Shown here: in pieces, positions 55,618 to 61,039 of the stretch | How the letters are laid out: every line of letters begins with the position of its first letter | Position numbering within the stretch: position 1 is the first letter of the stretch | Source: Escherichia phage rV5_ev158 | Sequence record: LR694611 | DNA: 64,000 bases | Direction: 5' to 3' (one strand) | Translations under genes and position numbers: made by a program | Notes under the pieces: model-generated | What the model saw: the letters and a program-made list of their open reading frames with translations, nothing else | Told to the model about the DNA's origin: nothing | Database searches by the model: none

Positions 55618-57696
55618 TTAAAAAGGCGTTTCATCATCCTCAAAACCAGGGACCGGGTCAGAGGATGGATCATCGTACTGGAGGTCTTCCTGCGTGTCAA
55701 CAGGCTTAACAGTAGGAGTTACAACCTTATCAGCCACAACCTTGCCCATAGGTGTTTCTACAACTGCATGCTCCTGATCCTCAAACATAGCCTGAGGTCT
55801 CCAAACAACCTCCCCACCTTCTCCGTCTGTAAACATTTGCATTTCTTTGTCCCAGTACCAATTACTGGCATCATGGAACTTACCTGTGTGCGGGTCCATA
55901 ACCAAAGTGTCAGCAATACCTAGAGTTTTTGCTGGACGGTTTTTAAGACCTACCAGACGGACACGTCCACGAGAACGATCCACCATTTCTTCGGCCTCGA
56001 CACCTATGACTACCCAACTCAACTGTTCAAGCCCCGCCGATCCTCGCAAATTCTCTTTTCGCACAGGATACCAGAAAGGTAACGGGTTACCATCCTTGTC
56101 CTTAGGAGGCACAATCTCTGTACGTTTGAGGTGAGCGATCACCAAGATAAACACGTTAAACTGCTTACAAAACGCAGCCAGCTGAGTCATAGCCATGTCC
56201 AGTTCTTTTCGCTCATCCTTAACATTAAGCCCTGAAATTACCATGGACAGGTGATCCAGCACAATATAACGGCAATGGTACAGGCAAACCATTTGCTTAA
56301 GCTTGGTAATCAACTCGTCCACCGGAATAGATCCGAAATGTTTGAACACTTTGATTTTTCCAGCTTTTGCCCATGATTGGTGAATCTCTGCGTGTTCTTG
56401 ATCAGTTAAAAACTGGCTAGGATCTTCAACAAACTCTTTAACATCAAACCCTAACTGGTTTGCATACAAGGAGTTAATTGCTTCCTCTGGGTCCTCCTCA
56501 AGATGGATCATACATAGACGATCATCCTCTTCATAGTCATCAGCCTTCGGGCATGTCGGGTCCATTAGGTATCTTGCAATACAATGTTCCAGTTTTTTAG
56601 CTACAGTTGTTTTACCGCCCCCTGATGGCCCTGTAAGCATTACGAGTGTCCCTTTGTGCAAGCCTTTTAGCATTTTTTGCAGTTTTGGGAACTCTGCGCT
56701 GATATCTACCCCGTTGGAAGTCTTTTTCCGCAAAGACTCGATAGAGAAGTCTTCTAAATCCGACACAGCATCAGGCACATATTTAACAGGGTGCCGGAAC
56801 ATGTTGACAATATCTTCCAGCTTTTTAGCCTTCAGCATGTCACGGATATCTTTTACCCCGTCAGGGTCATTTACTTCACCAGGGTATTCTACGTGGTAAA
56901 CGTTATCAGCCATCAAAAATGCTGCGATATTGTGCGTGGCCTCAACACCTTTAATGACGTGTTTTTGCTTCTCTACCTCGTTAGCTGCATCGTTATCCAT
57001 TGCCAGCACAACTGTTCCATAGCTACGGATAAACTTCTCATTGTTTGCAAAAGTATCTACTGCGTTTGCACATCCACAGTTAATTCCAACAAAAGGCAGG
57101 CAGGGTTTTCCTGCCAGATCACCACCGTTGATAACTGCGTCGATCCCGTCCTGGACCTCTTTAGCCCACTGCTTCACCTTTGCCGGGGCTTTAGCGTTGG
57201 TGAGAATCCCTTTTACTTGTATCTGATATGCAGCCTGCCATGCTGCAATAACATCACCTTCTCCCTCACAAACGTTAATCTGCTTACGGTTGTTGGAAGA
57301 TGCACACAGCTTTTGACCAAACATCTGGGAGTTGGCCTTTACGATGCCAACAACGGAGAAGTGGCCCCTTTGTTCTTTAGGAATAGTCCAGTCACGCTTT
57401 TTGAAACCGGACAGATTTCCGTAGCGGTCGTAATATGGGAAATATGTTGCAGTGACTGTCACACCGTCTTCTTGTGACAATGCTGATCGCACACCAAAAT
57501 ATTGTGCAGCCATCAGACCGATATTTTGTTGTGGGACAGGGACAATTTTAGTATTTTCTAAAACAGTCTCTACAGTTTCAACTTCTTTTTCATCACGATA
57601 GTCTCGTTTCACACTTCCCCCACTTTTATACTTAGTTGCTTTCGGGTTTGGCTCACCGAAACGGTTGTATGCAGATGCCATAAATTTACTTCCCAT
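55618..57696 (-). CDS. primase-helicase (TOPRIM primase plus DnaB/gp4-like helicase)
   Basis: 692 aa; TOPRIM-like VVLAMDNDAAN; Walker A LTGPSGGGKTT; Walker B-like IVLDHLSMV. Confidence 0.75.
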   Translation of the reverse strand: MGSKFMASAYNRFGEPNPKATKYKSGGSVKRDYRDEKEVETVETVLENTKIVPVPQQNIGLMAAQYFGVRSALSQEDGVTVTATYFPYYDRYGNLSGFKKRDWTIPKEQRGHFSVVGIVKANSQMFGQKLCASSNNRKQINVCEGEGDVIAAWQAAYQIQVKGILTNAKAPAKVKQWAKEVQDGIDAVINGGDLAGKPCLPFVGINCGCANAVDTFANNEKFIRSYGTVVLAMDNDAANEVEKQKHVIKGVEATHNIAAFLMADNVYHVEYPGEVNDPDGVKDIRDMLKAKKLEDIVNMFRHPVKYVPDAVSDLEDFSIESLRKKTSNGVDISAEFPKLQKMLKGLHKGTLVMLTGPSGGGKTTVAKKLEHCIARYLMDPTCPKADDYEEDDRLCMIHLEEDPEEAINSLYANQLGFDVKEFVEDPSQFLTDQEHAEIHQSWAKAGKIKVFKHFGSIPVDELITKLKQMVCLYHCRYIVLDHLSMVISGLNVKDERKELDMAMTQLAAFCKQFNVFILVIAHLKRTEIVPPKDKDGNPLPFWYPVRKENLRGSAGLEQLSWVVIGVEAEEMVDRSRGRVRLVGLKNRPAKTLGIADTLVMDPHTGKFHDASNWYWDKEMQMFTDGEGGEVVWRPQAMFEDQEHAVVETPMGKVVADKVVTPTVKPVDTQEDLQYDDPSSDPVPGFEDDETPF

Positions 57697-58480
57697 TAAT
57701 TCTGCTCCTTACTACAGGCTCGTTTGCTAGGAATACGGCTTTTGCCCAGCCACGTGGTGTGAGGCTTCGGATCATCTTCGTTCTTGCACTCTTTCCACCC
57801 AGCTTGGCGTGTTGCATGGAATACCCGCTAACCGCGTCAACTATTTGCGGGACAGGTTTTGTGGCCGGGATTATAAATCCATTACCTATCCAGCCGCAAG
57901 TTATTTTTGGATAGGCATCACGTGGAGCTATAAATTCAGGAAACCAGGGGTTTACATCATCCTCCGGTAAATACCCGCCATAGTCAGAAGGGTGAAAACG
58001 GTAATCAGGTTTGCGCCACAGTGTGGACATAACACCCACAGGATTCTCTACATGCCACGGGCAATCGTAAATCTCTCCCAACTCTTCTGCAACCCGAGCA
58101 TCCTTTACAGCATTAATCTGGATCAGCGGGTCCTTAGCCAGCTTCTTCTTAAAGTGTGCAGCACCTGACACCGCTAAGTGGGTGCACGGAGGAAATGCAA
58201 GAACAAAGTCCGGAGCTGGGTACATGCAGAAAGTTTCCTGAGGGAACCATGGATCAATCCAATAATCTACATAGTGAATATTTGGATGATCGGTGATCAC
58301 CTCTGCATAACTGCCGTGGTCAGCACCTTCTGCGTTAAAGCACAGGCACAGATATCCAGCTTTTGCCCAGTCAATGACTGCACCGCCAGATCCGTCAAAT
58401 AGACTCCACACAACACCTTTGTGGTAGTGTTCTTTATAGATAAATTTCAATTTGCTGTCTCCTAATGCAAAAAGCCCCAC
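57686..58480 (-). CDS. C5-cytosine methyltransferase-like protein (short)
   Basis: LFDGSGG (motif I FxGxG), AFPPC (motif IV PC) and HVENPVG (motif VI ENV) in C5-MTase order; only 264 aa. Confidence 0.45.
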   Translation of the reverse strand: MGLFALGDSKLKFIYKEHYHKGVVWSLFDGSGGAVIDWAKAGYLCLCFNAEGADHGSYAEVITDHPNIHYVDYWIDPWFPQETFCMYPAPDFVLAFPPCTHLAVSGAAHFKKKLAKDPLIQINAVKDARVAEELGEIYDCPWHVENPVGVMSTLWRKPDYRFHPSDYGGYLPEDDVNPWFPEFIAPRDAYPKITCGWIGNGFIIPATKPVPQIVDAVSGYSMQHAKLGGKSARTKMIRSLTPRGWAKAVFLANEPVVRSRINGK

Positions 58481-58495
58481 CCTTTCGGGCAGGGC
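58468..58495 (-). terminator. Rho-independent terminator (repeated element, copy 2)
   Basis: Identical GCCCCACCCTTTCGGGCAGGGC hairpin. Confidence 0.55.
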
Positions 58496-58501
58496 CTAGT
58501 G

Positions 58502-58984
58502 TTAAACCCGGATACCTATTGTATACTCGGTGGATACCAATGTCAAATCTAAATTTAAAATTTCTTGCATCTCATAGTATGCATCCAGGGTGAGATACAT
58601 TTCCCCATCCTTTTCTACATACTTGTCCAAGTGCTTGAGGCATTTCGGATAACTATCAAGGGCAGCCTTTAGGCACTCAAACTCTGTGCTGTTGATGAGT
58701 CCTTCCATCTTGGCTACCCGTTCTGGGGTAACGATAGCACTGTAGTGAGATTTAGCTTCCTGGATGCAATGGGTCCAAGCATCAACTTTCTCTTCGAAAA
58801 GTCCGAAGAACTTCTTTTTGGTGAGCTTCAGATTCTTTAAGTGCTTAAGCACTCGGTTACCGATCACAGCCACATCACGAAACTTAAGGATCACTTTGTC
58901 GATATCCTCGCGGCCTATTTTCACAAAGCAAGCCTCACACATTTCAGGAGCTGCGTAACCTACTTTCCACATAAAATCTGACAT
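58502..58984 (-). CDS. hypothetical protein
   Basis: 160 aa. Confidence 0.5.
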   Translation of the reverse strand: MSDFMWKVGYAAPEMCEACFVKIGREDIDKVILKFRDVAVIGNRVLKHLKNLKLTKKKFFGLFEEKVDAWTHCIQEAKSHYSAIVTPERVAKMEGLINSTEFECLKAALDSYPKCLKHLDKYVEKDGEMYLTLDAYYEMQEILNLDLTLVSTEYTIGIRV

Positions 58985-58996
58985 AACACTATCCCC

Positions 58997-59395
58997 TTAT
59001 TCTTCCTGAAAAGCAACGATATCATATGAACTTGCAGACGATCCTGGTGAAGAATGACTCCAGTCTAGGTCATCAGAGTAGTCAGCGTACTGTGCACCAC
59101 TACGTAGTTTATATTTTACCCACTTACCTGGTGCAGGGTTTTCACCACCTTCCCATACTTCCCAGCCTTCTGGCAGGCCGTCCTGGGGATAGTCATCCAC
59201 CTCACTAATAATCTTAGGGTTTGGCACCAAGATCCCTGCAGGCTCTTCCTTCCGGATAAGTGTCCACACAACGTAGGTGTCTGAGCAGGCGCATGATAGC
59301 AAAGTATATCCACTATTCAGAACTTCTGCAAGCTCTTTTTCAGCATCTTCCAATTTGGTTAAGTGGTATTGGATAACCTTCACACCTGTAATCAT
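58997..59395 (-). CDS. hypothetical protein
   Basis: 132 aa. Confidence 0.5.
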   Translation of the reverse strand: MITGVKVIQYHLTKLEDAEKELAEVLNSGYTLLSCACSDTYVVWTLIRKEEPAGILVPNPKIISEVDDYPQDGLPEGWEVWEGGENPAPGKWVKYKLRSGAQYADYSDDLDWSHSSPGSSASSYDIVAFQEE

Positions 59396-59739
59396 CAGAA
59401 ACCTCCCACTTCTTCAGCAAATGCAGCTGCTGTCGTCGCTGCATCCAGATAGGACTCTAGTTCACGGGCTGCACGTTTGTAAATTGAGTGTCGCAAATCG
59501 TTTGGCAGTTGGTGGAAGTCCACCTCTTCACCGTTGTGGTAAACATGCACATCGGTAATTTGTCTAAATCCGTAATAGTCAACATCAGAATCACGGCACT
59601 CTGGGTCTGGCAACTGGACAACTGCCTGAGCTTCCACAGTGAACATATCGTCAAGTTCGAAATCGATTTCAAAAGTGTATGGTTTATAACATTTCATCAT
59701 TTGATTGTACTCTTTATTGATCAGACTTATCTTTCGCAA
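59395..59739 (-). CDS. hypothetical protein
   Basis: 114 aa. Confidence 0.45.
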   Translation of the reverse strand: MRKISLINKEYNQMMKCYKPYTFEIDFELDDMFTVEAQAVVQLPDPECRDSDVDYYGFRQITDVHVYHNGEEVDFHQLPNDLRHSIYKRAARELESYLDAATTAAAFAEEVGGF

Positions 59740-61039
59740 TTAAGGTCGGGGCAAGTTTGTAATAACGGAAGCCACCACCACCTTGCCAGTTTACAGACTT
59801 AGAAATACCACCTTGATCTTCACCATCGATCACTTTTTCCAAGCGCGGAATAATATGGGTATGACAATGATCACCTAGCTCGATTGAGATCCAACGTCTT
59901 TTCATCTTGTGAGCTACAGCAGCAGTAGTTCCCGAACCACCGAATGAATCCAATACCAAATAGCCTTCTCGCGTACACATTTCGAAAATTCGCTTCAAAA
60001 GCGCTTCTGGTTTTTTCCCATTTTTGAAACTAACGCCGCCTTCATTTGCTATTCCATTCCAACTAATGTCTGTCCAAACATCAGTTATTAGTTCCGCAGG
60101 TTGCATATCACCGTCAATTTCCAAAAGCCTGTTGGAGTAAAAGACCATTTGCCTACCATTTACGATATAAAATCCTTCAACATCTTCATTTGGATGTACA
60201 TAAACCTTATCCCTATCTTTCTTTGACTTCTCGATAGTTTCTTTTCTCTTTATTTTAGCACCACCGCCGATTGCAACAGATTGAAATACACGTTCTGCAT
60301 TATCAATTGCGAATTGTGCTAATTCATCATCGAATGTATCAGGCAGTTTTTTCTTGGCCTCTTTTGCATCTTTATAGCCATTGGCCTTTGCAAACGCATC
60401 GGCAATACCGCACCACGTCCAATTTTTATAATGGTCATCCGGGTTTAATAGGTATTTGTTATATCCTGTATCGTACCCTTTAGGTATATAGATTTTGTTA
60501 AGCGGTTTCTGGGTGCGATCTTTTGCATATACAAGCAAAAAGTTTGCTGTGGAGAAAACTGTGGCTCCTGTTGCCTTAAATCCCGAAGGGGAATTTGTGG
60601 TCATCGATATGGTATTTAACTGATTTGCACGACCAAAAATCTCGTCCATCAAAACTTTTAAATACGCCATTTCGCAATCATCTAAGTGAACGAATATTAC
60701 CCCATCATCACTTAGAAGATTACGAATTATTTCTAACCTATCCCTCATTAAGCCCAGCCAAATGGAATGCTCCAGGCTATCATCGTAGTGCTCAAAAGCC
60801 CTCCCGGTATTGAATGGCGGGTCTATGTAAACACACTTCACTTTGCCTGCATACTCTTGCTCTAGCGCCTTCAATGCTAATAAGTTATCTCCAAAAATCA
60901 GTTTATTATCAAAAATATCGTTTTCGGTCACTTTCTGGCTGCGGTAAGACTTGCTAGAATCTTCTAATAAAATGTGCGGCTCTAACTTTTTGCGCTCGTT
61001 TTTACCTATCCAGGTAAGTTCTAATTTGGTTTTGCTCAT
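59714..61039 (-). CDS. DNA methyltransferase (N6-adenine or N4-cytosine, beta-class motif order)
   Basis: VYIDPPFNTG (motif IV) near N-terminus and LVLDSFGGSGTT (motif I) near C-terminus; AAGGAGAG upstream. Confidence 0.7.
   Translation of the reverse strand: MSKTKLELTWIGKNERKKLEPHILLEDSSKSYRSQKVTENDIFDNKLIFGDNLLALKALEQEYAGKVKCVYIDPPFNTGRAFEHYDDSLEHSIWLGLMRDRLEIIRNLLSDDGVIFVHLDDCEMAYLKVLMDEIFGRANQLNTISMTTNSPSGFKATGATVFSTANFLLVYAKDRTQKPLNKIYIPKGYDTGYNKYLLNPDDHYKNWTWCGIADAFAKANGYKDAKEAKKKLPDTFDDELAQFAIDNAERVFQSVAIGGGAKIKRKETIEKSKKDRDKVYVHPNEDVEGFYIVNGRQMVFYSNRLLEIDGDMQPAELITDVWTDISWNGIANEGGVSFKNGKKPEALLKRIFEMCTREGYLVLDSFGGSGTTAAVAHKMKRRWISIELGDHCHTHIIPRLEKVIDGEDQGGISKSVNWQGGGGFRYYKLAPTLIAKDKSDQ

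Follow-up and report, generated by a model that had tools for sequence, protein, structure and literature searches.

A probable Dcm-like DNA cytosine-C5 methyltransferase of a compact phage family in Escherichia phage rV5_ev158

The characterised homologue and the rV5 gene

The compact phage methyltransferases labelled as Dcm-like have an experimentally characterised member in K42, a phage that shares 95.4% identity with KarlJaspers/Bas06 (bioRxiv 10.1101/2023.08.16.553469). All K42 escapers from the retron Ec86 were hit in a 711-bp gene annotated as a "Dcm-like C5 cytosine methyltransferase", and only cells that carry the retron stop growing when this gene is expressed (10.1101/2023.08.16.553469). 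Liquid chromatography coupled to mass spectrometry (LC-MS) revealed high levels of 5-methylcytosine (5mC) on the multicopy single-stranded DNA (msDNA) of Ec86 with the wild-type K42 Dcm but not with a C82A/E128A/K175A/K176A mutant, which also fails to trigger the retron; the catalytic residues had been mapped on an AlphaFold model superposed on DNMT3A (10.1101/2023.08.16.553469). According to the reference list of PMC12673091, the Ec86 preprint later appeared as Wang et al., Cell Rep 2024, 43:114857. Here we describe the homologue found on the minus strand, at positions 57686..58450, of a 64,000-nucleotide stretch of Escherichia phage rV5_ev158 (LR694611), referred to below as the window.

The KarlJaspers protein (bas06_0055) and the rV5 protein align over their full length with 53% identity (235 aligned residues, E 4e-86), and the K42 residues C82, E128 and K175 correspond to rV5 C99, E145 and K192 with a constant offset of 17. 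These residue numbers are those of a 264-aa version of the protein, so that C99 becomes C89 in the 254-aa form preferred below. Since 5mC production by the homologue depends on the equivalent Cys, Glu and Lys residues, and given the 53% identity, we conclude that the gene very probably encodes a DNA cytosine-C5 methyltransferase that depends on S-adenosylmethionine (AdoMet, SAM) and is a member of PHROG 757, the family of compact Dcm-like phage enzymes. It thus belongs to a known and already annotated family with an experimentally characterised homologue, and several GenBank records label the rV5-type gene as "Dcm-like C5 cytosine methyltransferase" or "DNA cytosine methyltransferase". Both proteins are compact (236 aa in K42/KarlJaspers, 254 aa in rV5), keep the PPC, ENP and Lys residues and lack a target-recognition domain (TRD). 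They differ in that K42/KarlJaspers is a siphovirus of the Drexlerviridae whereas rV5 is a myovirus, in the N-terminus, 10-17 residues longer in rV5, and in the overlap of the rV5 gene with the primase-helicase gene.

Family, motifs and fold

The match to PHROG 757 ("DNA methyltransferase") runs end to end (residues 10-261 against positions 3-226 of a 247-position profile, E 7.3e-87). By tblastn the family was found in 1,501 phage records, including rV5-like myoviruses, Drexlerviridae, Phi1/RB49-like phages, Klebsiella siphoviruses, and Vibrio and Arthrobacter phages. A HMMER scan of 1.84 billion representative sequences recovered 999 clusters (50% identity) at E <= 0.001, nearly all of 210-260 aa, and among the longer members scanned for fused DNA-binding domains a single HNH insertion was found. 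In rV5-like genomes, over 100 of them, conservation of the protein stands at 98-99%. The canonical enzymes M.HhaI, M.HaeIII and E. coli Dcm (PF00145) have 320-480 aa, a TRD of ca. 90 residues or larger and clear motifs IX and X. A preliminary description of this DNA had called the protein unusually short, which is true against such enzymes but not within its own family: the median there is 232 aa, so that shortness is a family trait and no oddity of rV5.

That description had also listed motifs I, IV and VI in this order, and the codons in the DNA bear it out. Motif I, LFDGSGG (58382..58402, minus strand, as are all the motifs that follow), is the AdoMet-binding glycine loop after strand beta1; it is conserved throughout the family and aligns with LSLFDG of DNMT3A/3B and with ISTFAGGGG of CmoX. 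Motif IV, FPPCT (58181..58195, codons TTT CCT CCG TGC ACC), holds the catalytic C99, and motif VI, ENPVG (58034..58048, codons GAG AAT CCT GTG GGT), is of the ENV type in which the Glu contacts the flipped cytosine. In an alignment of 72 sequences reaching down to ca. 30% identity, the P and C of motif IV are invariant or nearly so and the E-N-P of motif VI is invariant. Also retained are the Gly after motif IV (G96 in the 254-aa numbering), an acidic or amide residue where strand beta2 ends, the Lys of the "K-x-T-C" that precedes beta7 and, in a C-terminal block IRSxTPRGFAxAV, the R, P and G.

The conserved stretch RDAYPKITC (57896..57922), leading into strand beta7, resembles a variant of motif VIII (QxRxR) written RDAYPK(K/I)TC, with Lys replacing Arg. 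Here K192 would be equivalent to K175 of K42 and to the motif VIII Arg of DNMT3A, by a low-confidence hhalign pairing (KkTcLWtGnGF with RARYFWGNLPG) and by the superposition of the K42 paper. Beyond it, only ca. 37 residues (200-236; 57773..57883) separate this block and strand beta7 from the C-terminal block, where canonical enzymes have ca. 90 or more and DNMT3A has ca. 95, motif IX included. In the model this variable and then basic segment, ending in ...KLGGKSARTKM, forms two short helices; its KLGGKSxRTK is strongly kept in close relatives and lost in distant ones. The rV5 protein is therefore without a canonical TRD, in agreement with the preliminary description, which could not identify a target-recognition region. 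The C-terminal family hallmark IRSLTPRGWAKAV, with the beginning of the last helix, lies at 57734..57772, with R, P and G invariant. The spacing of this IRSLTPRGFAxAV block (R0, L2, T3, R5, A8) resembles motif IX of M.HaeIII, RRLTVRECARV. To find its register, the family was aligned by hhalign with CmoX, a CmoX-family profile, DNMT3A and HhaI, and C-terminal sub-profiles with DNMT3A, HhaI and CmoX. The block was paired with the "TL" loop of the TRD (PTLTASG in CmoX, RTITTRS in DNMT3A) or, in a sub-profile, with motif X of CmoX (VGRMVPP), and a sub-profile paired the preceding KLGGKS with LLGRSW of DNMT3A, none of these pairings being significant. A 32-column C-terminal profile had no match in the whole PDB.

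An AlphaFold2 model built from 34 homologues is a single Rossmann-type domain (predicted local distance difference test, pLDDT, 87.5; predicted template modelling score, pTM, 0.87). Both structure searches with it placed DNA C5-methyltransferases on top, with CmoX as the second-best match, and no protein of the ThyA fold was among the top matches. The nearest structural relatives are the catalytic domains of DNMT3A/DNMT3B (6u8p, 5yx2, 6f57), in which the recognition region is also very small. Identity to them is only 13-16% and the rV5 protein is ca. 30-50 residues shorter; unlike it, DNMT3 retains a TRD loop of ca. 50 residues as well as motifs IX and X, and forms an oligomer with DNMT3L. CmoX (8yf3; PMC12783734) has 372 aa, a TRD, an SPPC motif, Arg350 in motif X, cmoA and ligase partners, and uses carboxy-SAM (Cx-SAM). 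At the sequence level, the PDB gave only weak matches, to DNMT3B, HaeIII and DNMT2 across motifs I-IV, and profile comparisons with DNMT3A and CmoX brought the three motifs I, IV and VI into register (E 2e-4 to 9e-4, each as a single comparison). The DNMT3A sequence was checked against 5yx2, and the CmoX sequence is identical to that of 8yf3. The preliminary description had read the protein as a possible minimal C5-cytosine methyltransferase and had made this hang on a Rossmann-type AdoMet-binding fold and a catalytic Cys in a PC motif. The model, the structure searches and the alignment show both to be present, so its reading stands, and the homologue with 53% identity makes 5mC in vivo.

By homology and structure, the enzyme would follow the standard SAM-dependent mechanism with a covalent Cys. 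From the chemistry of the family, the target cytosine would be flipped from the DNA duplex, C6 would be attacked by Cys99 (PPC motif), and Glu145 of ENP together with Lys192 would hold the flipped base. The LFDGSGG loop and the D/N that ends strand beta2 would bind AdoMet, whose methyl would pass to C5, after which the Cys would be eliminated. The protein is predicted to be almost nothing but the catalytic Rossmann domain. DNA contacts are probably made through a family-specific insertion (ca. 165-186), the basic segment 200-236 and the IRSLTPRGFA block, and the protein may form a dimer as in DNMT3.

Weighing the assignment, rival activities and the target

A number of observations weigh against the assignment or leave it less specific. 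None of the Pfam and NCBIfam models matches the rV5 protein even at E = 10; for PF00145 there is likewise no match at E <= 10, and only four of the 72 relatives reach this model, weakly (best E 0.0067). A TRD, a motif IX or a motif X cannot be assigned with significance, each profile comparison giving a different register. The rV5 genome paper makes no mention of methylation, and in the window (observed/expected 0.88) CCWGG sites show no avoidance and no enrichment. Finally, the second Lys of K42, K176, is replaced by I193 in rV5, and likewise in the rV5-like phages in general. With this last difference and the missing TRD, the rV5 copy could be catalytically weak or inactive and have some other role such as DNA binding or acting as a decoy. 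We consider this very unlikely and it finds little support: the remaining catalytic and AdoMet-binding residues are all intact, the protein is kept nearly identical over the rV5-like genomes, and in the wider family the position after K192 is variable whereas K192 itself is nearly invariant. A PADLOC scan of the rV5 methyltransferase gave no usable match.

The other rivals concern the substrate or the group transferred. DNMT2 shares the fold of the DNA methyltransferases, and the rV5 protein could in principle methylate cytosine C5 in RNA (tRNA) in the manner of DNMT2. Little speaks for this and we hold it to be most unlikely, as DNMT2 scores under a dozen DNA enzymes, the homologue modifies DNA, and the gene lies in a DNA replication module beside a DNA adenine methyltransferase. 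The small size and the want of a recognisable DNA target-recognition domain would suit an enzyme acting on free nucleotides, for example turning dCMP into 5-methyl-dCMP, and the preliminary description had offered a nucleotide-level pyrimidine-modifying enzyme as its second choice. To our knowledge, the fold of the known nucleotide-level enzymes that modify C5 of dCMP or dUMP, such as dCMP methylase and hydroxymethylase, is that of thymidylate synthase. The model is instead a class I Rossmann methyltransferase with DNA C5-methyltransferases as its best matches, and the homologue methylates polymeric msDNA; because of the fold and of this activity we set the free-nucleotide enzyme aside as scarcely credible. 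That XbaI cuts rV5 DNA is weak evidence against a wholesale base replacement.

The position of CmoX as second-best structural match, and the invariant basic residues that the family has near a possible motif X, raise the question of a CmoX-like DNA cytosine C5-carboxymethyltransferase, which would draw carboxy-SAM from the host CmoA and whose product, replacing 5mC or accompanying it, would be 5-carboxymethylcytosine. This we regard as extremely unlikely. The product of the homologue identified by LC-MS is 5mC, in a host strain that we would expect to carry cmoA; the rV5 motif is FPPC and not the SPPC that defines CmoX; and the motif X register of the rV5 protein is not significant. Moreover, DNMT3A, which uses SAM, also has an Arg at the motif X position (LLGRSW, confirmed in its sequence). 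With E. coli CmoA as the query, tblastn retrieved 85 phage records, none of them rV5-like, and Escherichia phages yielded neither cmoA nor a ligase partner. The cmoA-like genes in those records come from 48 Erwinia jumbo phages and from Pseudomonas, Synechococcus and Staphylococcus phages, a spread by which DNA modification based on Cx-SAM may be wider than the cyanophage case.

If the protein is a DNA cytosine-C5 methyltransferase, as we think, its target has to be considered apart. MG1655, the host of the K42 work, is presumably dcm+. The K42 study took CCWGG from the host Dcm, and its test of this site was confined to one CCTGG of the msDNA stem, whose CC was mutated, in MG1655 (10.1101/2023.08.16.553469). 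CCWGG is thus a working assumption in the literature, assumed rather than measured. The observed/expected ratio of 0.88 makes the window sequence uninformative on the target, and the ratios of other short palindromes in the window are equally so. In the literature on the compact Dcm-like family we found no mapped methylation motif, nor in that on rV5 any report of methylation of its DNA. Because no target of the family has been mapped and CCWGG was borrowed from the host Dcm, a different selectivity of the TRD-less enzyme is conceivable, although on balance unlikely: it might recognise a motif that is very short or relaxed, or favour DNA in hairpins, in single strands or at replication forks, perhaps as a DNMT3-like dimer.

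Gene boundaries, neighbourhood and significance

The open reading frame (ORF) 57686..58480 of the preliminary description exists in the ORF list, but the 264 aa given there are most likely ten too many, and a start at the TTG at 58450, giving 254 aa up to the TAA stop at 57688-57686, is preferred. The mechanical GTG start at 58480 falls within the 3' arm of an 11-bp hairpin, a Shine-Dalgarno sequence (AGGAGA, 58463-58458) stands before the TTG with a 7-nt spacer, and the annotated starts of relatives agree: bas54_0074 of phage MaxBurger is annotated from the same TTG (765 nt, 254 aa), the cluster representative P0001 (254 aa) begins there, and so does P0002, with 79% identity. Residues 1-10 of the longer form are predicted to be disordered (pLDDT ca. 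45) and have no counterpart in the homologues. The 30 nt of 58451..58480 (minus strand) are probably an untranslated leader with the ribosome-binding site. The hairpin itself (58472..58497, minus strand; GAAA loop, U5 tail, free energy -24.8 kcal/mol, z -2.5) sits between the methyltransferase gene and the upstream ORF 58502..58984, and looks like an intrinsic terminator of the latter; an Rfam scan around it gave no match. Within the 3' end of the same ORF, at 58518-58546 on the minus strand, there is a near-consensus sigma-70 promoter (TTGACA-17-TACAAT, 11/12), one of four such sites found where 2.3 are expected. The order is unusual, with the promoter directly followed by the terminator-like hairpin and then by the ribosome-binding site of the methyltransferase, and could reflect a leader, an attenuator or a chance match.

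At the other end, the methyltransferase and the primase-helicase gene (55618..57696, minus strand; Pfam matches DnaB_C/AAA_25 and annotation in relatives) overlap by 11 nt, ATGGGAAGTAA (57686..57696). The preliminary description saw this overlap with the direction reversed, since it is the 3' end of the methyltransferase gene, with its TAA, that lies over the start of the primase-helicase gene (ATG at 57696). The primase-helicase gene has an AAGGAG Shine-Dalgarno sequence 8 nt upstream of its start, within the methyltransferase gene, and the identical overlap is annotated in MaxBurger. Judging from this layout, it is ordinary translational coupling between the two genes. In rV5, SZH-1, Gluttony and KarlJaspers the compact methyltransferase domain has a helicase gene for a neighbour, and in two uncultured-phage proteins, A0A6J5SE15 (1397 aa) and A0A6J5NPY6 (1126 aa), the domain is fused to a helicase-like region. 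Adjacency and fusion hint at a functional link of the methyltransferase with replication.

Over the 6.5 kb surrounding the gene, identity is 100% to Escherichia phage rV5_ev168 (LR694610) and 98% to many Vequintavirus genomes. The gene lies inside a replication module with the order RecD-like helicase, a small ORF, PF01555 methyltransferase, three small ORFs, Dcm-like methyltransferase, primase-helicase and family A DNA polymerase. The PF01555 (N6_N4_Mtase) gene (59714..61039, minus strand; 441 aa, DPPF motif, Pfam E 2e-40) encodes an adenine methyltransferase according to the annotation in relatives. Its end is overlapped over 26 nt by a mechanical 114-aa ORF with a TTG start (59395-59739, minus strand), a form probably produced by the ORF calling itself, because the MaxBurger counterpart is annotated as 100 aa with a start further downstream. 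The region of the rV5 methyltransferase is also ca. 98% identical to 16 GenBank records titled "Campylobacter phage" (host Campylobacter jejuni; MG065635, MG065647 and MG065690 among them), which look like rV5-type coliphages, either mislabelled or contaminants.

The Dcm-like enzyme would be produced together with the replication genes, translationally coupled to the primase-helicase, and by methylating newly made phage DNA it may blunt host restriction. The cost would be that such enzymes are sensed by defences of the retron Ec86 type. The N6-adenine methyltransferase of Bas51 (Vequintavirinae) methylates GATC and triggers the retrons Asa1 and Squ1 (PMC12548924). If it and the product of 59714-61039 are orthologous, both methyltransferases of rV5 have retron-triggering relatives.

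The annotation of the gene as a Dcm-like methyltransferase adjoining an N6/N4-type methyltransferase is correct but routine. The family is huge and yet invisible to Pfam and NCBIfam, so that its members are often left as "hypothetical protein", and the retron-triggering homologues bear on the host range of rV5-like phages used in therapy or biocontrol. What interest remains lies in a natural minimal C5 methyltransferase with a DNMT3-like fold and target recognition without a TRD. If its selectivity does prove to be different, such an enzyme would show how little protein suffices to choose a cytosine.

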